NCBI GenBank assembly: GCA_021796295.1 | Contig: JAJYIA010000002.1 | Span: forward strand, 1-41,250 | Direction of reading: 5' to 3' | Source: Candidatus Micrarchaeota archaeon | GTDB lineage: Archaea > Micrarchaeota > Micrarchaeia > Micrarchaeales > CABMGC01 | Length of the DNA: 41,250 nt | Notes under the pieces: model-generated | Told to the model about the DNA's origin: nothing | Seen by the model: only the letters and a program-made list of their open reading frames with translations | Databases searched by the model: none | Shown here: positions 387 to 41,197 of the stretch, piece after piece | Layout of the letters: each line of letters begins with the position of its first letter | How positions within the stretch are numbered: the first letter of the stretch is position 1 | Program-made: the position numbers and the translations under genes

Positions 387-585
387 GTGATGTTGGAAGA
401 AGACGGACCTCTTCTTCTCAAACTTGCAAAGGAGTGTAAGGGAGCAAAGGAGCATGACAGATATCTTGCACTTCATGCGGTGAGTGAAGGATACGGGATT
501 CAGTTGGTTGCAAAGATATTCTGCGTAGATGAGGACTCCATCTACGGGTGGATAAATAGATGGAAGGAGGAACGGAACCTTGCAG
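387..585 (+). pseudogene. IS630-family transposase N-terminal HTH fragment, truncated at about 575-590
   Basis: The 69-aa ORF contains KEHDRYLALHAVSEGYGIQLVAKIFCVDEDSIYGWINRWKEE, an HTH followed by W..R..EEG as in IS630 N-termini. No DDE domain follows. It runs into the IS110 fragment on the opposite strand. Confidence 0.5.
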
Positions 586-975
586 CCTATGTCTGACCTT
601 TGCCCTGTAGTCTCTTGCGTCTTTCGGAGGCACATATGCTTCGTATATCTCATCTGCGCGGTGTTTTTCTGCCAATCTCAACGAGTCCCATTTGTCCGTC
701 TTTTTTCCAGATTCATTCAATTTCGTTTGTGAAGGGTTTGCCACTTTTATGACATTACACCTTTCTACAAGATAGTCGTAAAGGCCGTACCAAATGCCAC
801 ATGCCTCCATCACGACGTTCAGGCATACTTTAGGTATGCCCATAAAGAACCGTTCCACTGCTTCTTCAGTGCACGGAATCTTCGCCTCCTCGATCACGTT
901 CTTATTCTCGTCTATCATAGTGGCGTATATCCACTTCGTTCCCAGATCCAGTCCGACATAGTATTGTTGGTCCAT
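586..975 (-). pseudogene. IS110-family transposase N-terminal (DEDD/RuvC-like) fragment, about 130 aa
   Basis: MDQQYYVGLDLGTKWIYATMIDENKNVIEEAKIP...VVMEACGIWYGLYDYL...KTDKWDSLRLAEKHRADEIYEAYVPPKDARDYRAKVRHR matches the IS110 N-terminal domain pattern. After about aa 130 the frame becomes low-quality readthrough. Confidence 0.75.
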
Positions 976-2855: not shown

Positions 2856-4079
2856 TCAGTTCCTGATGTTTACCCTATCTGTTTTTTTCTTTTGGGTTTC
2901 AACGCCGTTGCGCAGAGTATCCTTGACATTCCGCCTTTCAGGAGGGCCTTTAGTTACCGCATTGTTAGGCATACCTTCCGATCCCCTCAATATGGCCTTT
3001 TCCCTTCGTATCCTCTCTGACCCCTGTCGCATATTTTCAAGGCCCCTCTTTAGTATGGCGTTTAACTCACGTCCCTTCGCCTCTCTTGTGGCAGAGCTTA
3101 GTCCCACGTTCAATATATCCTTAAGCAGATATTTCAGGTTGTCTTCCTCCTTGTTTAATGGCAATACAGCCATATTTGCATATGAAAACGCATTCTTTTC
3201 GGCTTTGTTAGATATGGAAGGGTCTGCGCCGTTGATTATAAGGTTCTTCATGACAATCAGGCGTTTTTTAAGGAGGTCTCGCTGGGCCGCTGCATTGCTG
3301 TCTGTGCTCGCAGCAACCTGGGTTGCATATATAACAGCAGTATTGCCTTTTGAGTCCTGCCGGTTTATGCTCTTGATAACGCTCTGATTCTGAAGGAGTA
3401 CGTTAACCACTCCGTACTGTTTGCTTAGTATTTTCTGCATAAGAAGAGATGAACCTGACTTATTTACATGGGCGGGATCTGCGCCGGAAGCAATGAGCTT
3501 CTTGAAATTTTCCAGTCGGTAGGCATTCGGGGTGGAAGCTATGCCCAGGGCATAGGAAAGTGCCGTGTTGCCGCTTGTGTCCTCGTGGTTTATCGTCTTC
3601 GTGATTGAAGGCACGGTGCGCATATAATCAAGGATTTTAGTATTGCCTGAGAATGCAGCCCACATCAAGCCCGTGCCTTTGCCCCGGTCCTCTGCATCTG
3701 TTTTTATGCCTTTGTCTATCACATACTTAAGCAGCGTTATGTCCCTCTCCCTGATTGAATGCTGTACTACGCGTATGAAGAGAGGAAAACTGTGTTCGTC
3801 TTTTGCATTTAGATGTGCCTTCTCTTTAAGCGCCTTTCCAAATTTTATAATGTTATCATTTTCCAGAACATCCAGAAACTCGAGGCTGGACTTAAATCCA
3901 ACACGCTTTCTGATTTCAATATCCCTATCGGTGGCATAGAATAAGGCAAGGTCTGGCGAGCGGGCCAGAAATCCATTGAAGATCTTTTCAGAACTTTCAA
4001 GCTCAGCATTGAAACTTCGTTCTGAGTCCTTTTGAAGGGGCTTGCCGCTGTCAGACCCAAGTGGCTGCGCTGGTTGCAT
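2856..4079 (-). CDS. Ankyrin-repeat protein with a basic C-terminal tail
   Basis: Repeats are recognisable by eye: GKGTGLMWAAFSGNTKILDYM; TSGNTALSYALG...LIASGADPAHVNKSGSSLL; DSKGNTAVIYAT...LIINGADPSISNKAEKNAFSYA. There is no signal peptide. The C-terminal ~60 aa are K/R-rich. Confidence 0.8.
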   Translation of the reverse strand: MQPAQPLGSDSGKPLQKDSERSFNAELESSEKIFNGFLARSPDLALFYATDRDIEIRKRVGFKSSLEFLDVLENDNIIKFGKALKEKAHLNAKDEHSFPLFIRVVQHSIRERDITLLKYVIDKGIKTDAEDRGKGTGLMWAAFSGNTKILDYMRTVPSITKTINHEDTSGNTALSYALGIASTPNAYRLENFKKLIASGADPAHVNKSGSSLLMQKILSKQYGVVNVLLQNQSVIKSINRQDSKGNTAVIYATQVAASTDSNAAAQRDLLKKRLIVMKNLIINGADPSISNKAEKNAFSYANMAVLPLNKEEDNLKYLLKDILNVGLSSATREAKGRELNAILKRGLENMRQGSERIRREKAILRGSEGMPNNAVTKGPPERRNVKDTLRNGVETQKKKTDRVNIRN

Positions 4080-27492: not shown

Positions 27493-27738
27493 TTAGCGCG
27501 GCTTGCTGATCTCAGAAACTGCCCTCTCTATTAGCTCTTTGTGCGATCTCTTGAAGATGTAGGTCTTGTACTTCTCCCTCATCATGCTCCACACATAATA
27601 AAATGTGAGGAAGAGGTCAACTGATATGAAAATGAGCGCAACAATCGGCTCAGTCGTAAGCCTCACTACAAGGAAGCCTAAAGCTGCATTGTACAACACG
27701 AATGCAACTATCGCAAGCTTCACTAAGAGGTCTTTCAT
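27493..27738 (-). CDS. Small 2-TM membrane protein (paralog of 27782-28051)
   Basis: The shared pattern is L(Y/I)N(A/T)xLG(F/Y)(L/V)(V/I)(V/I)xLT, then a second TM and a basic tail. Confidence 0.4.
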   Translation of the reverse strand: MKDLLVKLAIVAFVLYNAALGFLVVRLTTEPIVALIFISVDLFLTFYYVWSMMREKYKTYIFKRSHKELIERAVSEISKPR

Positions 27739-29025: not shown

Positions 29026-29313
29026 CTATATTTTGCATACGACCTTTCCTATTATGGCCTCGCTGCCTATGCGGCCGAAATGCCTACTGTCCTCGCTATG
29101 CTCACTGTTGTCACCTCTCACGAAATAGCCGCGGCTTCCGGCGCTTGCCACACGCTTTACAATGCTCATCTCCTTTTTCGGGTGCCTGAGCACAACGATG
29201 TCGCCTGGAGATAGCTTTATGAAGGCCTGCCTTACAAGGACGTAGTCGCCCTCATGAAGCTCGGGCTCCATGCTCCTCTCCTTTATCTTGAAGATCCTTA
29301 ACGGGAAGTGCAT
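29026..29313 (-). CDS. sodX: S26-family signal-peptidase-like protease, probable Ni-SOD maturation protease SodX
   Basis: ERSMEPELHEGDYVLV...PGDIVVLRHP....IVKRV.......VRGDNSEHSEDSRHFG carries S26 catalytic Ser and Lys motifs. It lies 3 nt downstream of sodN. Confidence 0.75.
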   Translation of the reverse strand: MHFPLRIFKIKERSMEPELHEGDYVLVRQAFIKLSPGDIVVLRHPKKEMSIVKRVASAGSRGYFVRGDNSEHSEDSRHFGRIGSEAIIGKVVCKI

Positions 29314-29316
29314 GCC

Positions 29317-29814
29317 TCAGACCTTTGGATAGACGATCTCACGCTTAGTAGGGTAGAATGCCTCTATCCTCTTTGTCTCGACGCCTTTTGTCTTCCAGAA
29401 GATCTCGGCTATTTTTTCCACAACTGAAAGAAGCTCCTCTGCAGTTTTGACATCCGTCTTCTGGCGCGCCTCGGAGCCAAGCTTCAGCGCATTCCAGATG
29501 AGCTCCTGCAATTCTGGGTTTTGCTCAAGGTGCTCGTGCTTGAAGTAATCGCCCCATAGGATCCTTATCTCTCGCTTGCACAGTTCGGCGTGCTCTTCCT
29601 TGACTGCGGTGTACCTCACAAGCTTATGCATTGTTTCAACAGTATTGTCCTTGGGCAATGCGGCTATGAGGTCTGCCATGCGTATGACAGTATGCGCCGC
29701 CATCTGCGCAGCATGAGGATCATAGATGCCGCAGGGTATGTCGCAATGCGCATATGCCGTATCAAACCCAAAAAACCTGTCGATGCCATCCAGAAGTGCA
29801 TGCAAAGCTTTCAT
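29317..29814 (-). CDS. sodN: Nickel-containing superoxide dismutase precursor
   Basis: A 22-aa leader is followed by HCDIPCGIYDP, the Ni-hook motif (HCDLPCGVYDP in the characterised enzymes). The size and helical remainder fit. Confidence 0.85.
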   Translation of the reverse strand: MKALHALLDGIDRFFGFDTAYAHCDIPCGIYDPHAAQMAAHTVIRMADLIAALPKDNTVETMHKLVRYTAVKEEHAELCKREIRILWGDYFKHEHLEQNPELQELIWNALKLGSEARQKTDVKTAEELLSVVEKIAEIFWKTKGVETKRIEAFYPTKREIVYPKV

Positions 29815-29927: not shown

Positions 29928-29976
29928 GTTTAAATATTTATTCTGATATATGATTTTTACTAAAATATAAAGGTGG
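29928..29976 (+). promoter_or_regulatory. Putative promoter (TATA-like) and Shine-Dalgarno for the 29981-34918 operon
   Basis: GTTTAAATATTTA lies at 29928-29940. AGGTGG at 29971-29976 sits 4 nt upstream of the TTG start at 29981. Confidence 0.3.
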
Positions 29977-29980
29977 GTAT

Positions 29981-30367
29981 TTGAATAAAATATATAGGAA
30001 GGAAGCAGTCATCGCACTGGGGCGCAGTTTCATCAGGATTCCGCTGCTCTTTGCTGCTGCGCTCCTTGCATACAGGAGCGCCTATGCGTACACTCCGCAG
30101 ACCCTTGACATAATCTCTACCCTGAACAATATACAGGGCATACTCATGCACATAGGTCCTGTTCTCAGCGCCGTTCTTTTCGTCGTAGCAGGCATATTCT
30201 ACGCCATAGGCCAGCTCTTCCCTGGTTACAAGAGGGCAAACCTCCACAGCGCATCGATCGACCTCATAATAGGCGCCATTATCGTGGCTGTGCTCTCCGC
30301 TGCGTCAACAGGCCTTGCCGTCGCATCAACGCATCTTCTCTCCAACCTCTCGGCAAATTCAACGTGA
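29981..30367 (+). CDS. Secreted two-helix membrane protein, VirB2/TrbC-pilin-like architecture (CedA1/TedC-like candidate)
   Basis: TTG start with an SD. Signal peptide ..IPLLFAAALLAYRSAYA/YTPQ. The mature ~91 aa has two hydrophobic helices separated by the basic loop PGYKRANLHS, and a C-terminal NLS/NST. Confidence 0.5.
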   Translation: MNKIYRKEAVIALGRSFIRIPLLFAAALLAYRSAYAYTPQTLDIISTLNNIQGILMHIGPVLSAVLFVVAGIFYAIGQLFPGYKRANLHSASIDLIIGAIIVAVLSAASTGLAVASTHLLSNLSANST

Positions 30368-30371
30368 TGGG

Positions 30372-31412
30372 ATGCAGTTCGGCGCAATTGGAAGCTACGG
30401 CTTTTCAGTAGCAGTCCTTCTCACGGCGATGATGATTGCGATAAGCGGGATGGTGCTTGGCATAGGCTATGCGCTGAACGACCGCAGATTCAAGGACTTC
30501 GGAAGCGAGGGGCTTTATCAGTCAATCATAAGCGGCGTGCTTGTGGGGAGCATGATGCTTCTTTTTGCCAACGGAGGCCTTGTGAACAGACTTGTCAATT
30601 CGGCAATACCGGCCAACACATCACTGCACTGCCCTCAGCTCATATCTGGAAACTCTGCCATCTGCCTCTCCTACAATTATCTTGTGGGTACGCAGCCGTA
30701 CACCTTCATGGGCGTCTCGCATGCTTCGGTCTTCAGCATGGCCATGAATATAACAACCGGACTCCTTACTCTGAATGCAATCGTAGGAATGATTGCATCC
30801 CTGAAGTTCAGTTTTATAGTCTCGTTCTCATTCGGATACGTGCTCATGCCTATCCTGAATGAGCTCAGGTACGCGATAAAGCTTCTTATTGACGTGGCAG
30901 TTAGTGCCGTTGTCCAGGCTGCTGTCCTCGTATTCGTATCGGCAGGCGCGCTTGAGGTCATACTGCCTTCCGGGCTTGTGCTGCGCACGTTTTACCCTAC
31001 GAGGAAGATAGGCGGCTTTCTCATAGCTCTGAGCATAGGCATGTATGCAGTATTTCCCATGACATACGTTTTGAATTCGATGCTGATAAACACATACTCA
31101 TTAAGCATAAATTCGACATCAATATCGCAGGCTTCGGTGAGCGCTTCAGGAACTGAAAGCAGCCTGATCTCATCAGCTGCCTCGTATAATGCCCTGAGCA
31201 CAGGCATACTCAGCAGCATGAACAGCATAATCTCGCAGCTCAGCGGCGCGCTCTCAGGCGTGATGAACGGCATAATCGTCTCGGTTTCTTACCTCATAGT
31301 ATATGCCTTCGTGCTTCCTGCATTCAGCCTTATCATAACGGGCATATCGATAAGGGAACTGGCATCGGCCCTGGGCTCTGAAGCCCGCTTTGGAAGATTC
31401 GATATATTGTGA
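30372..31412 (+). CDS. Polytopic membrane protein, VirB6/TrbL/CedA-like candidate
   Basis: 346 aa with about 7 hydrophobic segments, a Cys-containing loop (HCPQLISGNSAIC) and a Ser-rich loop. It starts 4 nt after the upstream stop. Confidence 0.45.
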   Translation: MQFGAIGSYGFSVAVLLTAMMIAISGMVLGIGYALNDRRFKDFGSEGLYQSIISGVLVGSMMLLFANGGLVNRLVNSAIPANTSLHCPQLISGNSAICLSYNYLVGTQPYTFMGVSHASVFSMAMNITTGLLTLNAIVGMIASLKFSFIVSFSFGYVLMPILNELRYAIKLLIDVAVSAVVQAAVLVFVSAGALEVILPSGLVLRTFYPTRKIGGFLIALSIGMYAVFPMTYVLNSMLINTYSLSINSTSISQASVSASGTESSLISSAASYNALSTGILSSMNSIISQLSGALSGVMNGIIVSVSYLIVYAFVLPAFSLIITGISIRELASALGSEARFGRFDIL

Positions 31413-31416
31413 TTGG

Positions 31417-32142
31417 ATGGAGGAAGACGACATTGCGAATAGGCTTTATGCCTATCTTTTCTACGCTGCTGCAGTCGTCTGCATACTCTTAAGCATTGCC
31501 TCGTACAATATCATCTTTGTGGCGTGCGCCTTACTGCTGATGCTTTTCTCGTCCTTATACCTGAACAGCGGCCATATACTTAACAACCTGCTGATAAAAA
31601 GGTCAGCGGTTATTGAGGTCTATAATGGCTATGCTGTGAACGAGAGGCTGCCTTCAGCTGTGAAGAAGGTGGGCACGGCGTATCTGAGCATATCGCTTGC
31701 AGTGCTGCAGCTTGGCAGCTCAAGCAGCATAGACGGAAAAGTCTTCAGGTCCATGCTTGAGAACGTACGCGAGCCGTTCGAGTTCAGTATAGAACTCGCT
31801 GAAGCGGAGAAGGGCAAGATTCTTGAAACGCTTGAGATGAAGAGAAGGATGAAGGAGATAGAGCTTACCAGGGCTGACAGGAGGCGCTATGAGAGGATAA
31901 ACAGCATAACCCGAGAGATAGAGCTCATCAATTCAGAGATAGCAGGGCTAGGCCCGGGCAAGACATACAGGATGCTGCTAAGGCTGAAAACCTCTGCCCG
32001 CTCAGCAGACAGGGGCGAGGCTGCGCTTGAGTCTTCAAGGGGCATTGAGCACATAGCGGGCTCCTTTGCATCGGCATTCGGCCTGAGCTACAGGATACTC
32101 TCCGGAGAGGAGCTCCTGGGATTCATAGAGGCGCATGCATGA
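31417..32142 (+). CDS. 2-TM protein with a soluble domain, candidate VirB3 + VirB4 N-terminal-domain equivalent
   Basis: LYAYLFYAAAVVCILLSIASYNIIFVACALLLMLFSSLYL forms a hydrophobic hairpin, followed by a ~170-aa soluble domain. Its stop overlaps the ATPase start (ATGA). Confidence 0.4.
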   Translation: MEEDDIANRLYAYLFYAAAVVCILLSIASYNIIFVACALLLMLFSSLYLNSGHILNNLLIKRSAVIEVYNGYAVNERLPSAVKKVGTAYLSISLAVLQLGSSSSIDGKVFRSMLENVREPFEFSIELAEAEKGKILETLEMKRRMKEIELTRADRRRYERINSITREIELINSEIAGLGPGKTYRMLLRLKTSARSADRGEAALESSRGIEHIAGSFASAFGLSYRILSGEELLGFIEAHA

Positions 32143-33239
32143 GGTATTACGAAACTGCAAATGAGGAGGTCGCGGCAAGGCTATTCCATGCGCCTGTGCC
32201 GGATGAGCCCGATATTGATGCCATGGAAAGCGCGTGCAGCGGCGGCATCTTTATAGGGTTCACAGGGCTCCTCTCTGTGCCGTTCTTCATAAATTTTGAC
32301 TATCTTATAAACCAGCATGTCTTCATATTCGGCATGAGCGGCGGAGGCAAGACATTCCTTATGAAGAACATGATGCTAAGGCTTCACTACATGCTTGAGT
32401 GCTCAGTGCTTCTTGTAGACTTTACAGGCGAATATGCGGAATTTGCAAGATTCGCAGGCTGCAGAGAGACAGGGCCTTCTGTGAAGATGCAGCTTAAGCA
32501 GGGCATAACCTATATTAACCTGAAGGGCTACAGCGAGGCCGAGAAGGTGCAGCATGCCGAGAGTGTTCTCAGGGCAGTGGCAGAGGTCATGCGCTCAGGC
32601 GCCAGCAGGAGGCGTTTGTTCGTAATAATGGATGAGGCGTGGAAGATGCTTGGCAGGAGCGCGCCGCTCAACGCCATAGTGAGGGAAGGCAGGAAGTACT
32701 CTGTCGGGCTTGTTTTCGCCTCGCAGCTCGTTGAAGATGCCGAGCTTGAAGCCATAGCGAACGTGGCCACGCTCTTCATATTCAGGATGCAGAACAGGGG
32801 GAGCCTTGAGAAGATAGCCAGGAACTACAACATAGGCGAGGAAGCTCTTCTCAGAATACAAAACCTAGATGTGGGCAGTTGCTACGTAGTACAGATAAGG
32901 AAGTCTGCAGCAAGGGAGGCCTTTGTGCTGAAAAGGGTTATAGGCATAGGCCTCAAGAGGCGCATCAGACTGGATTTTGGTGGGAACATGGTCGAAATAG
33001 AGGAGAAAAGGCTTGAGGCCGTGATAAGCGGCTTATGCAAAGACGACACATCGGCATTCATATCCGAGATCAAGAGATCCGGAAGTGTAGAGCTCCACAG
33101 CCTTATATACGGTCTCATGCGCCGCGGAGCTGACCGCAGGGCCATCCTGCGCTCTCTCGAAGGATTCGGCATAGGAGATATTGAGCTCTCTGATGCATTC
33201 TCAATGGCCGTAGGTGGAATGGATGAGGCTTCGAAATAG
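32139..33239 (+). CDS. P-loop ATPase of the VirB4/TrbE/CedB-HerA-FtsK type
   Basis: Walker A FIFGMSGGGKTFLMKNM. DFTGEY. Walker B RLFVIMDEAWKML. REGRKYSVGLVFASQ (Arg finger/sensor pattern of VirB4/TraC/HerA-like ATPases). Confidence 0.75.
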   Translation: MRYYETANEEVAARLFHAPVPDEPDIDAMESACSGGIFIGFTGLLSVPFFINFDYLINQHVFIFGMSGGGKTFLMKNMMLRLHYMLECSVLLVDFTGEYAEFARFAGCRETGPSVKMQLKQGITYINLKGYSEAEKVQHAESVLRAVAEVMRSGASRRRLFVIMDEAWKMLGRSAPLNAIVREGRKYSVGLVFASQLVEDAELEAIANVATLFIFRMQNRGSLEKIARNYNIGEEALLRIQNLDVGSCYVVQIRKSAAREAFVLKRVIGIGLKRRIRLDFGGNMVEIEEKRLEAVISGLCKDDTSAFISEIKRSGSVELHSLIYGLMRRGADRRAILRSLEGFGIGDIELSDAFSMAVGGMDEASK

Positions 33240-33906
33240 TTGCCGGTCTGAAGGCTATCTGGTAAGCAGGATACCCGTAAGGGCGGTAGCGTCTACAGGC
33301 ATGGGAAGCGTAGCCGAGAGGCTCAGGCTCTACCCCTCGCTTACGCAGCTCGGCAGGGGCACAAGCCTGAGGTACATGCTCAGGACAGAGCAAAGCGACC
33401 ACTTTTATATAATTGCGCTTGAAAAGCATGAGATACTCCTTGAAATATATGCGAAGGAAACGCCGCTTTACCTTTTTGGAGACGCAATGCTGAAGCTGCT
33501 TTCGCTCTTCGGCGTGCTTGAGGGCCTTTACACGTTCGACATTGCAGGCCTCTTCCCGTACATGGTCTGGGTACTCGGCAGGCAGCAGCTTGCAGAACAT
33601 CCAATGCAGGAAGCGGAAAGGAGACATGATATAAGCAGCGACCTGGTGCTTGCAAGAAGGATCCTGGGGCTTGCAAAGGAAAGGCAGGAAGCTGATGCAA
33701 GGGCAGAGCGCTGGCATTTGAGGGCCATACACATACTTGCGAAGCTCATGGTGTATGAACATAGCTGCGGCTTCAGCATAGAAGACATAGCCAAGGAGCA
33801 CGGCATAGCGCAGCATGATGTGCTTGACGCCATAGAGGCGATGTCAAGCATAGGCTACAGGGCCGTAAGGACGGGCAGGGGCTCTTTTGCACTGGCGAGA
33901 ATATGA
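33214..33906 (+). CDS. Hypothetical protein with a C-terminal winged-helix-like segment
   Basis: GFSIEDIAKEHGIAQHDVLDAIEAMSSIGYRAVRTGRGSFALARI looks like a wHTH. The start is uncertain (GTG 33214, or ATG 33223, 33301 or 33376). The stop overlaps the next start (ATGA). Confidence 0.4.
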   Translation: MEWMRLRNSCRSEGYLVSRIPVRAVASTGMGSVAERLRLYPSLTQLGRGTSLRYMLRTEQSDHFYIIALEKHEILLEIYAKETPLYLFGDAMLKLLSLFGVLEGLYTFDIAGLFPYMVWVLGRQQLAEHPMQEAERRHDISSDLVLARRILGLAKERQEADARAERWHLRAIHILAKLMVYEHSCGFSIEDIAKEHGIAQHDVLDAIEAMSSIGYRAVRTGRGSFALARI

Positions 33907-34460
33907 ATGCTGTAGCGTATGCGGCAATGCAGCTTCTTCCTGTCTTCATAGGCATAGCCATTATGTTTCTCATACGCTCCGTCAGGATGGCTAGGCGGCG
34001 CATAAGAATAGACATTACAGGCATCGAGAATTACAAGAATGGCGGTCCTGCTGAAGAAGGTCTGCACATGCATGAAGGCGGTGAGGTCGATGCGTCTTCT
34101 TACCGGAAGCAGCAGGAAGAAGAGAGTGCTATACGTCCAGATTCAGATTGCTGTGACAAGGGCGCAAGAGAGGCCGCTTTAGAAGAGCTGACAAGGGAGA
34201 TGCTTATCATCAACGGCATGTACAGAGGCAGCATACAGGATTATAGGAGCGCGGCCTTTTCCAGGCTTGGAATTATAGACGCAGAGGATGTGCACTCTGC
34301 GCCGCATTACCTCAGGAGATGGAATAAGAGGCAGATGACTGTTTTCATATTTGGCGAGGGCAGCAGGGGCTTAAACCTGAGGCTTCTCAGGTATGGCGAG
34401 AGCGAAGGCATACTCCTTGCATATGCGCTTTTGCATAGGTTGGAATTTATCGGTGTTTGA
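33903..34460 (+). CDS. Hypothetical N-terminally membrane-anchored protein
   Basis: One N-terminal TM (LLPVFIGIAIMFLI) followed by RRRIR, then an acidic linker and a ~100-aa C-terminal domain. No family recognised. Confidence 0.4.
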   Translation: MNAVAYAAMQLLPVFIGIAIMFLIRSVRMARRRIRIDITGIENYKNGGPAEEGLHMHEGGEVDASSYRKQQEEESAIRPDSDCCDKGAREAALEELTREMLIINGMYRGSIQDYRSAAFSRLGIIDAEDVHSAPHYLRRWNKRQMTVFIFGEGSRGLNLRLLRYGESEGILLAYALLHRLEFIGV

Positions 34461-34661
34461 ATGTACCTTATATTGGCATTTCTGACAATTGTGTTAGAGG
34501 TAAGCGCTGCAATATCCAGCGCATCGCTGAACGTCTTCTCTTTACGCATACTGAGAAGGAGGGGTCTGGGGTCTTATCCCAGGCTGAAGGAACCCATTAC
34601 TGGATTCCTGATCCTTGCATTTATATCGTTCTTTGCCTATGTGGTGGTAAAATCAACATAA
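34461..34661 (+). CDS. Hypothetical 66-aa 2-TM protein
   Basis: The ATG immediately follows the upstream TGA. MYLILAFLTIVLEVSAAISS...RRRG...ITGFLILAFISFFAYVVV. Preferred over the overlapping 153-aa ORF frame. Confidence 0.4.
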   Translation: MYLILAFLTIVLEVSAAISSASLNVFSLRILRRRGLGSYPRLKEPITGFLILAFISFFAYVVVKST

Positions 34662-34717
34662 AGCTCGTTTATAGGAAGTATGCGTGGAATCGCAGGGCAG
34701 CGATAGCACTGACGTTG

Positions 34718-34918
34718 ATGGGACTTCTCTGTACTGCGTTTATAATGATGCTCACGTTCACGAGGGCGGCACTGAGCTTTGCTAAGGTCCTCGCCGGCCT
34801 TTCTCTCTTTCTGCTTGCATTTACTGTGCGCCTGGCACGCGGCGTAAGGCATGAAAAGGCGCTCTGGCTCTCGGCTGCTCTCAGTCTTCTTCTTCTGTTG
34901 CTCATCATAGAGGCGTAA
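34718..34918 (+). CDS. Hypothetical 66-aa membrane protein
   Basis: MGLLCTAFIMMLTFTRAALSFAKVLAGLSLFLLAFTVRLARGVRHEKALWLSAALSLLLLLLIIEA is the hydrophobic C-terminal part of the tracked ORF 34457-34918. The start is uncertain. Confidence 0.3.
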   Translation: MGLLCTAFIMMLTFTRAALSFAKVLAGLSLFLLAFTVRLARGVRHEKALWLSAALSLLLLLLIIEA

Positions 34919-34999
34919 TGCATGCTGCATATGTACGAATTCGAATCAATACCGCAAAATGTCAGGTGCACGCGCTTTCTTGAAGTGAGACAAAAGTGC

Positions 35000-36217
35000 T
35001 TATATGGCAAGGCGCCTCTGCCTGAGTATATTCCTGAGAAGCATGCTGTTTTTTACCCATTCGACAACAGGGATATCGAGCAGGGCTGAGGCGTGCTTCA
35101 GCACGCCTTCCACGCTTTCAAATGCCTTGGGAGCCTTCCTGAGGGTTTCGCGCACATGCTCCCTCACATTCCATACTCCAACAGGCATTATATATCCCTG
35201 GTGGACCTCGCGCAGTATGACGACCTTTGCCTGTGACTTGCAGCTGTCAAGGAGCTCGCTTACTGCAAGCCTTGCAGCATAATAGCATCCGCCTATTTCG
35301 GCGTAGGTCTTTCTGCCGTTGTAGGATTCATATGATGAGCCCATGTCTATCTCTGTGCCGTTCAGGTTCCACGTTGTGTTGGGGTACCATGCCTCTATGG
35401 ATTCGTATTCCCATGATCCTGGAAACATAATGATTACCCATCTGTTGTCCAGTGCGATATTTTCATATACCCTTATGCCGGCTATAGGATTGTATTCCTT
35501 AATAGACATAAGCTTCTGCTTCGAGAGCGTATCGTCAACTGCAGTTATGCTCCACCGCGTAGGCACGAACCTCCTCTTTTTGCCGCGCCCGAGCAGGCCG
35601 GCTGAGAGGGCCTTCTGTATCTTTGATACAAGCACGCCCTTTACATAAAGCTCCCCTATTGCTTCAGAGGCAGGCATGCTGCTGTCAGAATATGCCTTCT
35701 CTATATTCTTCTCCGCATTTGAGTTGCCGAGCTCAATCCTTTCGATGGGCGCGCTGGGCCCGAAAGGCTGTGTATTCTCGCTTAGGTTCATACTCAGATT
35801 GGGCATCCTTGAAAGCTTCATCTCTACATCGGTGTGCCTTTCTGCCAGTGCTATTTCGGCAAGCACGTCTTCTATTCTGCCGCTGCCAACGCTTGTGACT
35901 TTCGTACGGTGCATGCCGCGTATCAGCAGCGATCTCAGTTCCACTATCTCAGGTATGCTCTTCCCTACCCACTTTTCAGGCGTTCCCAATATCTCGGTGT
36001 TGCCTACCTGAGGGGGCACAAGTGGCCCTATGTACACATTGGGATAGCCGATCCTGCCAACAAAGAGGTCAGGCGGAGATGAGCCATACACCTCTCTCTC
36101 CTTCATCAGCTCGATTGTTTTAAATCTGTAATAATCCTTCAGAAGATAGGGGTTGCGCATATTCCTGTAGACTTTGTCGCTTCTGATAATGTTGAGGCCT
36201 TCGGACATAAGGCACAC
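35000..36217 (-). CDS. Nre-family DNA repair protein (DUF650/DUF651, NreA-like)
   Basis: YGSSPPDLFVGRIGYPNVYIGPLVPP, RFVPTRWSITAVDD and GGCYYAARLAV are remembered hallmarks of the archaeal Nre family. About 400 aa. Confidence 0.65.
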   Translation of the reverse strand: MCLMSEGLNIIRSDKVYRNMRNPYLLKDYYRFKTIELMKEREVYGSSPPDLFVGRIGYPNVYIGPLVPPQVGNTEILGTPEKWVGKSIPEIVELRSLLIRGMHRTKVTSVGSGRIEDVLAEIALAERHTDVEMKLSRMPNLSMNLSENTQPFGPSAPIERIELGNSNAEKNIEKAYSDSSMPASEAIGELYVKGVLVSKIQKALSAGLLGRGKKRRFVPTRWSITAVDDTLSKQKLMSIKEYNPIAGIRVYENIALDNRWVIIMFPGSWEYESIEAWYPNTTWNLNGTEIDMGSSYESYNGRKTYAEIGGCYYAARLAVSELLDSCKSQAKVVILREVHQGYIMPVGVWNVREHVRETLRKAPKAFESVEGVLKHASALLDIPVVEWVKNSMLLRNILRQRRLAI

Positions 36218-36293: not shown

Positions 36294-36346
36294 TCACCTA
36301 GACTCTCGACAAGGAGGCCCATACGCTTTAGCCGTGGGTAGTTTAC
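36294..36346 (-). repeat. Short stop-codon-associated hairpin element, copy C
   Basis: The minus strand reads ..GTT GTA AAG TAA ACT ACC CAC GGC TAA AGC GTA TGG GCC TCC TTG TCG AGA GTC TAG GTG A. It starts on the TAA stop of the 36343-36939 gene and ends in GGTGA. Confidence 0.8.
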
Positions 36347-37094: not shown

Positions 37095-37130
37095 TATAAA
37101 ATAAGGGGGCTTGTGCCCCCTTATTTTATA
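37095..37130. repeat. Perfect 36-nt palindrome (16-bp stem, TTGT loop) at the truncation point of an IS110 remnant
   Basis: TATAAAATAAGGGGGC-TTGT-GCCCCCTTATTTTATA. Confidence 0.85.
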
Positions 37131-38551: not shown

Positions 38552-38624
38552 GGGGAGTTATGCTAGCTTGGTAGGCTTCCACCTTCGGGAGGTGGCGACC
38601 CGCGTTCAAATCGCGGACTCCCCG
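38552..38624 (+). tRNA. tRNA-Pro (anticodon CGG)
   Basis: GGGGAGT-TA-TGCT-AGCTTGGTA-GGCT-T-CCACC-TTCGGGA-GGTGG-CGAC-CCGCG-TTCAAAT-CGCGG-ACTCCCC-G. It starts directly after the peptidase stop. Confidence 0.8.
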
Positions 38625-38980: not shown

Positions 38981-39236
38981 ACTACCGTTAGAGCCAGTTT
39001 ACAATGGCTCCGTCTTGGGAAAACTGGCAACAACAGTTGCCGCTCCGAAGACGATTTTGCATGGCCAGTTGCGATTTAGGATTTTACGTCGGCCATACAA
39101 CCTCATACCCTATATCCATATCCACACAGGATATTTCACCAAGAACATGATGCACTACGAAATATATAATACTAACTACTCGACAATTCCTCCCACCGCT
39201 AAAGCGTGTGGGCTTCCTTGTCGAGAGTTTAGGTGA
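38977..39236 (+). repeat. Composite repeat: short hairpin element (copy D) interrupted after GTAAACTACC by a 204-nt insert containing module 'M' (38987-39136)
   Basis: GTAAACTACC | GTTAGAGCC...(M)...CAATTCCT | CCCACCGCTAAAGCGTGTGGGCTTCCTTGTCGAGAGTTTAGGTGA. Its first TAA is the antitoxin stop. The GTG of its terminal GGTGA is the tracked start of the toxin ORF. Confidence 0.8.
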
Positions 39237-39612: not shown

Positions 39613-41197
39613 TTAACCCCTAACTCCGCTGATCGTTGGTAATATGTATCTCAAGTTTTTCAATGAGATTGGCAGTTTTCCTTGGTACCTCTGAAGTAAT
39701 CCACTTGTCACCAATCTTCAATTTATGTACCCGTTCAAGATGTAGTAAAACGTCTTTTATCGAATATTTTTTGAGCACCTTCTTATCAACAAGAAGGTTG
39801 TATATCTTATAGTAGAGAAGTATCGCTACAAAGTTGATAAACATCCATCCTTCCAACTGATAATCGTCACGCATGTAAGAACGGTCTGCCTCTAATGTGT
39901 TCTTGAAGGTATCGTACAATTGCTCAATGTTGACTCTTTGTTTTAGGAATGAGTAAACATCTTCTCCACAGTTAGTCTGCAAATCTGTTATTATGGCTAT
40001 TGTGCCCATCCTGTGATTCATCTCATAAAACTGTTCCCTGCTTTTGTCTTGTTCATCTTTACTCTTTTCTTCATCGTTAGCTCTTTGAATTGCATCTTTC
40101 ATTTCTTCTGTCTTGAGTTTTTCATCGAGAAAAAGAAACACCTTTCTTTTGTCCAGACTGTATGAATAATAATGGATTGGCCTTCTTTCGAAAATGAAAT
40201 GGCCACTAAATCTGCGCATATCTCCGCTTCGAACAGTGTCGTAGTTTACGAGTGAACTGTCACGTTTGAGAGGAAGTATGTAATGAAGCCCTTCTTTTTC
40301 AAGGTCGTTGACGTTATTTATTGAGTAGAAGCCTTTATCACCAACCAATACTACATCTTTTATGCCGCTTTCCTTTATACTTCGTGACAATGCCGAGACG
40401 CTGGATATAGAACCTACGATAGTCCTGAAATATGCTGGCATACTTCTTGTTAAGTTGAAGAGATAAAGAAGATTCACTTGCGGTGCATAATCTTTTTTGC
40501 TGTTGTAACCAGTCATCTCCGAAACAACATTTTCTGACAACGAGAAGACATGTGTTAGGTCTACAGCCAGATATTCTCCTCCTGTAACAAAATTTGAGAG
40601 GAATTCTATTATCGTACCTCTTTCCGTACCTAATTCTCTTAGTAATCTTCCAATCAATCTGCCATTCATATCTGCATTAATGGTATCATAAATGAATGAC
40701 GTTGTATTAAGAAAGTCTAGATTTTTTATCGGAGAATTACGTAGTAGCCTAAATGCTGCAAATACAAAAATTTCTCTCCAATCATTCGGGAAATACTTCT
40801 TTATGAGATCTATTATATCCTTGTTCAGATCCATCAGGAACTGCGTTGCACCATACTCTTTCACAGTTATTCCGTTCTTTGTTAAGTTATAGAGAACTAC
40901 TTCGTGTTTTGGCGGCACAAGTCCCTCTGCAGTTATCTTGCCCAAATACTTACCACTAATCTTCCTTGCCCTATGTTTGTCTTTGTCCCATACACTGCTT
41001 ACTTCTCTGAGATAATAATTGTCTCCATGTCTTTCTATTGCAGTTCTCTTCCGCTTACGTGACAGCACCCAACTTGGATATTCCATATTACCAATATTAG
41101 TAATATTAATTTATAATACTTTCTGTCTGTTTTGTAGACGCTAGTAGTAGGTAATTTTACTCACCTATTACCAAAAACTAGCTGAGTTAAGGATTAA
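39613..41197 (-). mobile_element. IS1634-like (IS4 superfamily) insertion sequence, apparently intact
   Basis: Imperfect terminal inverted repeats: TTAACCCCTAACTCCGC (39613-39629) against the reverse complement of GCTGAGTTAAGGATTAA (41181-41197), 14/17 matches. They bracket a 488-aa transposase. The element is AT-richer than the core genes. No target duplication is evident. Confidence 0.55.
39620..41086 (-). CDS. IS1634-like DDE transposase
   Basis: The N-terminus YYLREVSSVWDKDKHRARKISGKYLGKI fits the IS1634-type N-domain pattern. DDE candidates are AVDLTH and VLVGDKGFYS, with R-x3-E-x6-K in RVNIEQLYDTFK. Confidence 0.8.
   Translation of the reverse strand: MEYPSWVLSRKRKRTAIERHGDNYYLREVSSVWDKDKHRARKISGKYLGKITAEGLVPPKHEVVLYNLTKNGITVKEYGATQFLMDLNKDIIDLIKKYFPNDWREIFVFAAFRLLRNSPIKNLDFLNTTSFIYDTINADMNGRLIGRLLRELGTERGTIIEFLSNFVTGGEYLAVDLTHVFSLSENVVSEMTGYNSKKDYAPQVNLLYLFNLTRSMPAYFRTIVGSISSVSALSRSIKESGIKDVVLVGDKGFYSINNVNDLEKEGLHYILPLKRDSSLVNYDTVRSGDMRRFSGHFIFERRPIHYYSYSLDKRKVFLFLDEKLKTEEMKDAIQRANDEEKSKDEQDKSREQFYEMNHRMGTIAIITDLQTNCGEDVYSFLKQRVNIEQLYDTFKNTLEADRSYMRDDYQLEGWMFINFVAILLYYKIYNLLVDKKVLKKYSIKDVLLHLERVHKLKIGDKWITSEVPRKTANLIEKLEIHITNDQRS

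Follow-up and report, generated by a model that had tools for sequence, protein, structure and literature searches.

A 41,250-nucleotide stretch of a Candidatus Micrarchaeota genome (contig JAJYIA010000002.1, assembly GCA_021796295.1; hereafter the window) carries eight same-strand open reading frames (ORFs), g1 to g8, at 29981-34918, which were read from the sequence and the ORF translations. The analysis supports their reading as a minimal, relaxase-less module derived from a type IV secretion system (T4SS) and of the same type as the archaeal Ced and Ted systems, in which genes for a VirB2-like pilin (g1), a polytopic membrane protein (g2), a membrane hairpin with a VirB4-like fold (g3) and a P-loop ATPase (g4) are followed by four accessory genes (g5-g8).

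The genes are tightly packed. The g1 TGA stop lies 4 nucleotides (nt) ahead of the g2 ATG at 30372, and the g2 TGA, which ends at 31412, lies 4 nt ahead of the g3 ATG at 31417; ATGA overlaps join g3 to g4 at 32139 and g5 to g6 at 33903, the g6 TGA and g7 ATG abut at 34460/34461, and 56 nt separate the g7 stop (34661) from the g8 ATG (34718). All the ORFs and junctions listed in an earlier reading of this DNA from its letters alone (the sequence-only reading) were found in the sequence, as were the TATA-like box and AGGTGG Shine-Dalgarno motif that it placed upstream and, in the translations, the motifs AYRSAYA/Y, PGYKRANLHS, GMSGGGKT, VIMDEAW and REGRKYSVGLVFASQ. Its start for g5 did not hold: because g5 orthologues are 220-234 amino acids (aa) long and overlap or abut g4, the likeliest start is ATG 33223 or GTG 33214, which makes g5 overlap the g4 stop, and the downstream ATG 33301 is improbable.

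Table 1. Features of the operon and its immediate borders, with positions in the window. TM, transmembrane; AF2, AlphaFold2.
Feature	Position	Strand	Basis and remarks
Putative promoter/ribosome-binding region	29929..29977	+	TATA-like TTTAAATATTTA 29929-29940; AGGTGGG 29971-29977, just 5' of the TTG start; read from sequence
g1, VirB2-like pilin precursor, 128 aa, TTG start	29981..30367	+	Pfam TrbC/T4SS_pilin matches, alignment, hydropathy
g2, polytopic membrane protein, 346 aa	30372..31412	+	ATG start; AF2 model, hydropathy
g3, TM hairpin plus ~170-aa alpha/beta cytoplasmic domain, 241 aa	31417..32142	+	AF2 model, Foldseek
g4, HerA/FtsK-superfamily P-loop ATPase, 366 aa	32139..33239	+	Pfam, NCBIfam and PDB-sequence profile matches
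g5, soluble protein, ~227 aa, weak C-terminal winged-helix motif	33223..33906	+	Alternative GTG start 33214; profile matches
g6, bitopic protein, 185 aa	33903..34460	+	Hydropathy, profile iteration
g7, two-TM hairpin peptide, 66 aa, basic loop RILRRRG	34461..34661	+	Hydropathy
g8, two-TM hairpin peptide, 66 aa, basic loop RLARGVRHEK	34718..34918	+	ATG start; hydropathy
g9 remnant, 22 codons, second ~740-aa HerA/FtsK-type ATPase (CedD-like)	34922..34987	+	tblastn

Relatives of the operon were collected with an ATPase profile run against a single genome from each GTDB species, which returned 233 encoding stretches; a look-up of the exact window ATPase sequence in public assemblies returned no record. 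Hidden Markov models (HMMs) of the window proteins, iterated over the six-frame ORFs of 86 loci (78 distinct ATPase sequences), recovered g1 in 81 loci, g2 in 83, g3 in 85, g4 in all 86, g5 in 79, g6 in 69, g7 in 23 and g8 in 2. The order and strand of the operon genes are identical throughout these loci, where identity to the window proteins ranges from about 20 to 75%, and this recurrence of the gene order is far beyond chance; the synteny covers g1 to g6, and the position of g7 and g8 is mostly kept. Four loci (L059, L062, L063 10001-10852 and L065) contain g1-g4 only, with g5, g6 and the small peptides absent and with a 283-aa ATPase that lacks the C-terminal domain of ~90 aa, which points to a four-gene core of the operon.

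Products of the pilin-like, membrane and ATPase genes

An alignment of 70 g1 orthologues displays a Sec-type signal peptide, an amphipathic helix, a first TM segment (TM1), a basic KRA loop, a second TM segment (TM2) and a C-terminal tail in which an N-x-T sequon is nearly invariant. The cleavage region is of the A-x-A type (..RSAYA/YT), TM1 reads GPxLSAVLF..AGIFYAxGQLFP, and hydropathy returns the signal peptide and two TM segments. The protein thus has the architecture of VirB2/TrbC pilins, namely a signal peptide, two hydrophobic helices and a short basic loop, for which a mature length of about 70-100 aa is taken as characteristic. Window g1 matches the Pfam models TrbC/VirB2 (PF04956; E=5.8e-5, 23.7 bits, profile positions 9-88 of 98) and T4SS_pilin (PF18895; E=5.3e-4, 20.5 bits), both matches spanning about 80% of the respective profile, and within the family at E<=0.01 T4SS_pilin is matched by 27 of 70 members (best 1.4e-7) and TrbC by 25 of 70. 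VirB2-like pilins of Patescibacteria have been called at E<0.001 and >50% coverage (PMC12102498), and as the E-values and coverage of window g1 lie within these limits, g1 is VirB2-like by a published criterion. A search of PDB sequences with the g1 profile placed the R388 pilin TrwL first, not significantly (E=0.38), and gave no match to CedA1 or TedC. Taken together, the profile matches and layout support the assignment of g1 as a putative signal-peptide-bearing VirB2-like pilin, in agreement with the VirB2/TrbC identity proposed for it earlier.

A confident AF2 model of g2 (predicted local distance difference test (pLDDT) 80.7, predicted template modelling score (pTM) 0.73) consists entirely of helices; about six of these span the membrane, and some are very long. 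Hydropathy gives six to seven hydrophobic segments, and an external loop holds two invariant cysteines, C87 and C98. The g2 family comprises 2162 representatives at E<=1e-3 in an HMMER profile search of 1.84 billion representatives, and no Pfam domain was found in ten distant relatives scanned. Distant relatives in two other archaeal contigs form tandem arrays of at least six paralogues, one of 1457 aa (L087 4534-11300; L088 5735-18285). The arrays and the size of the family indicate that g2 is one member of an extensive, uncharacterised family of membrane proteins, and in the operon it is by position and topology, rather than by demonstrated homology, the counterpart of VirB6, CedA and TedA.

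Both hydropathy and the AF2 model of g3 (pLDDT 78.8) agree with the hydrophobic hairpin and soluble domain of ~170 aa that had been read from its translation, the model showing an N-terminal TM hairpin followed by an alpha/beta domain. A Foldseek search of the model against 350,542 PDB chains placed TrwK/VirB4 of R388 at ranks 1-3 and 5-11 (best E=1.1e-3, probability 1.00), with ~158 aligned columns, TMq 0.37-0.38 and root-mean-square deviations of 5.4-5.9 A. As the 50 Foldseek hits listed for g3 do not include 4ag5, a VirB4 structure limited to the C-domain, we infer that the modelled fold resembles the VirB4-specific N-terminal part; the TM hairpin is VirB3-like in form.

The g4 protein contains a Walker A motif (GMSGGGKT), a Walker B motif (VIMDEAW), the motif REGRKY and a C-terminal helical domain of ~90 aa, and it matches the Pfam models AAA_10 (2.6e-11), DUF87 (3e-10), TrwB_AAD_bind and P-loop_TraG. 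NCBIfam CedB (NF041017) is the top curated model for 29 of 29 g4 family members (best 1.5e-25), followed by HerA_antiphage, VirB4-like CD1110, TraC and VirB4_CagE. The VirB4-type models match all 29 members with best E-values of 1.2e-14 (CD1110), 4.5e-13 (TraC) and 4.8e-10 (VirB4_CagE), all far below their cutoffs, and window g4 scores 41.8 bits against CedB, for which the equivalog cutoff is 700. The earlier comparison of g4 with ATPases of the VirB4/TrbE/TraC/HerA clade is in keeping with these matches, and its place in the VirB4 clade proper is tentative.

Against PDB sequences, the g4 family profile matches the HerA-like structures 8wiv (2.7e-20) and 4d2i (4.7e-13) and VirB4 4ag5 (8e-7), and by sequence HerA-type ATPases and VirB4 are equally close to g4. 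These best solved-structure matches raise the alternative that g4 is a HerA-type DNA-repair or anti-phage ATPase lying beside unrelated membrane proteins, with no secretion-type machine at the locus. PADLOC also returns mad8 and HerA hits, and the repair gene Nre adjoins the operon in 22 of 78 loci. However, the PADLOC matches are to ATPases only, and the operon contains no gene for NurA, Sir2, a nuclease or any other partner in defence or repair. Through its ATGA overlap the ATPase gene is translationally coupled to g3, whose membrane-anchored product has a VirB4-like fold, and the gene for the VirB2-like pilin lies upstream of both. CedB moreover outscores all HerA models, and in an equivalog test of g4 the HerA scores were below that of CedB and far under their own cutoffs. 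CedB and CedD have themselves been reported as HerA-clade proteins (PMC11868833), so that the scores of the HerA structures do not contradict the CedB match. A repair or defence ATPase without a secretion machine is therefore very unlikely. The candidate identity of a defence system was rejected, as PADLOC matched only generic ATPases and no partner gene.

The g4 protein aligns with positions 250-318 of the 590-position CedB profile and leaves about 250 N-terminal CedB residues uncovered, which is about the length of g3. Because the g3 model matches VirB4, g3 precedes and overlaps the ATPase gene, and g4 covers CedB only from about position 250, we read the pair as a VirB3-VirB4 divided between two genes. 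Since every locus keeps this division, it is not a frameshift artefact.

Downstream of the ATPase gene, the g5 family profile matches a DeoR-type helix-turn-helix structure (7bhy, E=0.0076) among PDB sequences and g5 matches Pfam Rrf2 (E=0.013), suggesting a weak, possibly DNA-binding C-terminal winged helix in this conserved accessory component. By hydropathy g6 has one N-terminal TM segment followed by a basic stretch; it is poorly conserved, has no Pfam or PDB-sequence match, and its C-terminal domain is probably cytoplasmic. Hydropathy assigns two TM segments with a basic loop between them to each of g7 and g8, hairpins which presumably share their general form with the small Ced proteins. 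Sequence relatives of g8 are limited to the closest genome, and one or two small hydrophobic ORFs follow directly behind g6 in 51 of 61 loci, with two in 36 of 61; g7 and g8 are thus fast-diverging in sequence and conserved by position. A protein with a winged-helix tail, a membrane-anchored protein and two 66-aa membrane peptides had been described here from the letters, and the weak winged-helix signal and the hydropathy agree with that description.

Sixty-five loci extend far enough downstream to show what follows the small peptides, and in 35 of them this is a gene, g9, for a second ATPase of ~660-850 aa. Its core aligns with g4 (hhalign probability 95%) and it scores above the Pfam HerA_C cutoff. 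CedD (NF053655) is the best curated model for 24 of the 35 g9 members, followed by VirB4-like conjugal ATPases; g9 of locus L001 scores 38.4 bits against CedD, for which the equivalog cutoff is 600. The N-terminal region of g9 does not align with g3 (hhalign probability 0.3%). In the window, tblastn found a g9 remnant with 55% identity to residues 1-22 of g9 of the closest relative, L004 (E=0.002), at the orthologous position. The remainder of g9 is deleted: compared with that closest genome about 5 kb are gone from the window, comprising g9, argH and argG.

Chromosomal setting and neighbouring genes

Labels were read for the best 80 of the 233 ATPase loci, and nearly all are Candidatus Micrarchaeota, Micrarchaeia or Micrarchaeaceae; the few loci labelled Marsarchaeota and the one labelled Acidoferrum we take to be binning or labelling errors. 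The window contains genes for glutamine synthetase, eIF6, RpoL, RIO kinase, uL16, a Ni-superoxide dismutase (NiSOD) with an S24/S26 peptidase, Nre and an M24 peptidase. In the closest relative, L004, the ATPase is 58% identical, uL16, the peptidase and NiSOD lie upstream and Nre downstream as in the window, and the two DNAs are collinear except for L004 10813-15880 (g9, argH, argG), which is missing in the window. Given the labels of the relatives and the collinear flanks, the window is part of a Micrarchaeota (DPANN) chromosome. Relatives that are all Micrarchaeota also fit the earlier suggestion that the organism might be an episymbiont.

Among 78 loci, uL16 recurs in the flanks of 18, Nre in 22 and M24 in 16. 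Pfam scans of 20 large flanking ORFs of the window detected no relaxase, coupling protein or integrase, and a repeat search of the window found no att-like direct repeats around the operon. The GC content is unremarkable over the operon, and no close ATPase homologue was found in 72,556 plasmids or in IMG/VR. The operon is chromosomal and vertically inherited, as the recurring flanks, the lack of close plasmid or viral homologues and of att-like repeats, and the unremarkable GC content attest. These data bear on the alternative that an integrated conjugative element or plasmid left the operon behind or carries it as cargo, with the relaxase and integrase beyond the window. Two transposase genes at the window edges are compatible with such an origin, as is one homologue named automatically by NCBI as a 'type IV secretory system conjugative DNA transfer family protein'. 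Yet the flanks are collinear with those of a relative of only 58% ATPase identity and recur in 16-22 of 78 loci, and neither att-like repeats, integrase or relaxase in the flanking ORFs, aberrant GC content nor close homologues in the plasmid and IMG/VR collections accompany the operon, so that an origin as a mobile remnant is scarcely credible. The absence of a relaxase, VirD4/TraG, integrase and att duplication from the window, as stated in the sequence-only reading, is upheld by the flank scans and the repeat search, and its argument against a conventional integrated conjugative element gains from the syntenic housekeeping flanks. A mobile-element identity was rejected on the evidence of the flank Pfam scans, the repeat search and the plasmid and IMG/VR searches.

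The transposase genes lie far from the operon and are an IS110-type fragment at 418-975 (-) and a DDE (IS4-like) gene at 39620-41086 (-). Directly upstream of the operon on the opposite strand is the NiSOD gene (HCDIPCGIYDP; 29026-29814 (-)), which with the adjoining S24/S26 peptidase gene forms a classic SodN/SodX maturation pair that is also present in L004. The Nre DNA-repair gene at 35000-36217 (-) adjoins the other end of the operon, as it does in 22 of 78 loci; this adjacency may be a matter of synteny alone or may reflect a functional link with DNA uptake.

Further out, a 407-aa ankyrin-repeat protein is encoded at 2856-4079 (-); such a protein is unusual in archaea, and it may be relevant to life in association with a host. 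A tRNA-Pro(CGG) gene at 38552-38624 (+), one base past the M24 peptidase stop, is called by ARAGORN and not by an Rfam gathering-threshold scan. The arms of a 45-nt inverted repeat (36294-36338 and 39192-39236, 91% complementary, 2.85 kb apart) enclose the ACT-domain gene, the M24 peptidase gene and this tRNA gene. The 28-nt core of the repeat is confined to two sites in the window, with 0 expected by chance, and 27662-27678 may be a partial third copy; the repeat could be an element like a miniature inverted-repeat transposable element (MITE) or an insertion-sequence end. The divergent intergenic region between the ACT-domain and M24 peptidase genes also holds a perfect 16-nt palindrome, TATAAAATAAGGGGGC-(4 nt)-GCCCCCTTATTTTATA, at 37095-37130.

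A probable T4SS-derived machine and its possible cargo

In the mechanism proposed here, g1 would be exported by Sec, cut by signal peptidase I and held in the membrane as a two-helix pilin, and the conserved C-terminal N-x-T sequon suggests that its tail faces outward and is glycosylated. The hairpin and VirB4-like domain of g3 and the ATPase domain of g4 would form a split VirB3-VirB4 motor that docks on g2, pulls g1 out of the membrane and polymerises it into a hollow conjugative-type pilus, as VirB4 does in bacteria. The g5, g6, g7 and g8 proteins would be lineage-specific accessory subunits, and g9, where present, may be a second motor analogous to CedD that probably drives substrate translocation. 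DNA would be taken up or exchanged between touching cells, as in Ced and Ted. Import or exchange of DNA is favoured because CedB and CedD are the closest curated families, the g5 tail may bind DNA, and Ced and Ted provide precedents.

We assign a probability of roughly 60% to this reading as a whole, that is, to a chromosomally fixed, vertically inherited minimal T4SS-derived apparatus analogous to Ced and Ted with DNA as its most likely cargo. For its parts, a T4SS-derived pilus and translocation machine is very probable, DNA as the cargo is tentative, and a role in host interaction with another cargo is somewhat less likely still.

Several observations weigh against this reading. Window g1 is under the Pfam curated cutoffs for both pilin models (TrbC 23.7 versus 27.9 bits; T4SS_pilin 20.5 versus 26.6 bits), so that the match to PF04956, although present, falls short of the gathering cutoff. 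The g2 protein has no similarity to VirB6, TrbL or CedA in Pfam, NCBIfam, a PDB-sequence profile search or a Foldseek search of the AF2 model against the PDB, and of the earlier description of g2 as a VirB6-like protein of ~7 TM segments the polytopic topology stands, while the VirB6 identity is conjectural; furthermore, no pilin or ATPase gene lies within 8 kb of the arrays of g2 relatives in L087 and L088. The structural match of g3 to VirB4 is borderline (E=1.1e-3), every VirB4 hit is to one protein, and the output does not state which part of VirB4 is aligned. At the sequence level g3 has no match, including PF03135 and PF05101, in Pfam scans of 72 homologues or in the PDB-sequence profile search, and the VirB3/VirB4-like character once proposed for it is thus tentative, with the borderline R388 VirB4 match in structure and none in sequence. 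The g4 scores to the CedB and VirB4 models are all far under the curated cutoffs, and solved HerA-type structures outscore VirB4 for the g4 profile. Lastly, 30 of 65 relatives lack g9 at the locus and the window has lost it by deletion, which weakens the case for DNA as a universal cargo.

The fate of g9 also bears on a different use of the same machine, as the host-interaction conduit of an obligate episymbiont that attaches to a Thermoplasmatales host and moves proteins, lipids, nucleotides or other material instead of exchanging DNA. This use is consistent with the dispensability of the putative DNA-translocating g9 at the locus, with the conservation of the operon across a phylum of genome-reduced, host-dependent archaea, and with the match of g1 to T4SS_pilin (PF18895), one of the two Pfam models used for the VirB2-like pilins of Patescibacteria, whose relaxase-less chromosomal T4SS is essential for epibiotic growth and provides a precedent (PMC12102498, PMC12857230). 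However, genes for an effector, an adhesin or a hydrolase are missing from the operon, the curated families that come nearest to the ATPases, CedB and CedD, are DNA importers, and g5 has a possible DNA-binding winged helix; a host conduit with a cargo other than DNA is considered unlikely, if plausible. In its widest form, which is doubtful to a similar degree, the operon would be a conduit between Micrarchaeota and their Thermoplasmatales host, with a VirB2-type tube, assembled by a split VirB3-VirB4 motor, for the acquisition of host DNA, nucleotides, lipids or proteins, and it would be a DPANN counterpart of the Patescibacteria T4SS that arose independently from a Ced/Ted-like ancestor.

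For the question of how DPANN archaea, in which most biosynthetic pathways are missing, obtain host material, the operon offers a small, concrete candidate gene set by which Micrarchaeota might exchange DNA or other material with partners. If the favoured reading of a Ced/Ted-like apparatus is true, domesticated T4SS derivatives extend beyond Thermoproteota, and VirB4 would here be naturally divided between two genes, one for a membrane-anchored N-terminal part and one for the ATPase, which would bear on the evolution of CedB/CedD and VirB3/VirB4.

Relation to known systems

The operon has apparently not been described before. A literature search found no T4SS-like, VirB2 or VirB4 system described for Micrarchaeota, in a coverage that mostly excludes subscription journals, so that an earlier description is possible. 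The nearest DPANN report concerns VirB4/TraG-like domains beside giant surface proteins in Nanohaloarchaeota, and a Micrarchaeum co-culture paper does not mention pili or a secretion system.

Among bacterial systems, the VirB/Trw core (VirB2, VirB3, VirB4 and VirB6; R388 structures 7o42 and 8rtd) is represented here by the g1 family, the g3 model and the g4 family, which match TrbC/VirB2 and T4SS_pilin, TrwK/VirB4 and TraC/VirB4, respectively, the g4 family matching the TraC/VirB4 models of bacterial T4SS at 1e-10 to 1e-13. The Micrarchaeota operon differs in lacking VirB1, B5, B7-B11, VirD4 and a relaxase, in its split VirB4 and in its monoderm archaeal envelope. The T4SS of Patescibacteria (candidate phyla radiation, CPR) is likewise phylum-wide, chromosomal and mostly relaxase-less, with VirB2-like pilins, in ultra-small episymbionts (PMC12102498). 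It is, however, bacterial and MPF-FATA-derived, with full-length VirB4, VirB6, VirB8 and often a coupling protein, whereas the archaeal system of Micrarchaeota is much smaller and comes nearer to CedB.

Ted, from Thermoproteales (TedC pilin, TedA, TedB), is like the Micrarchaeota operon a chromosomal, relaxase-less, domesticated T4SS derivative, and it likewise combines a VirB2-like pilin bearing a cleavable signal peptide, a polytopic membrane protein and a VirB4-type ATPase. Ted loci often include an extra HerA-type ATPase (Beltran et al. 2023; PMC9905601). Unlike Ted, the Micrarchaeota operon has a split VirB4 equivalent (g3 and g4) and the Micrarchaeota-specific genes g5-g8, and it belongs to DPANN rather than Thermoproteota; no similarity to Ted components was found in the PDB-sequence searches.

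Ced, from Sulfolobales (CedA, CedA1, CedA2, CedB, CedD and CedE), differs in gene order and accessory genes, and the scores of the Micrarchaeota ATPases are far under the CedB and CedD equivalog cutoffs; its pilin CedA1 reportedly undergoes no processing, in contrast to g1 with its signal peptide. It is nevertheless the source of the best curated models, CedB for g4 and CedD for g9, and it places small two-TM hairpin proteins beside a polytopic protein, as in the Micrarchaeota operon. The CedB/CedD pair is needed for DNA import (PMC11868833), and g4 and g9 with their CedB and CedD matches mirror it. Ced has a pair of paralogous ATPases of the HerA clade, the N-terminal domains of which resemble that of VirB4 only in structure, and the same arrangement is proposed here. 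As in Ced and Ted, a pilin, a polytopic protein and a VirB4-like ATPase stand together on the chromosome without a relaxase or coupling protein, with g2 placed by topology while its homology to VirB6 is unproven. The pilin matches, the likeness of g3 to VirB4, the CedB matches and the lack of a relaxase therefore support the central view, first put forward from the letters of the window, that the operon is a minimal T4SS-derived module of the Ced/Ted type.

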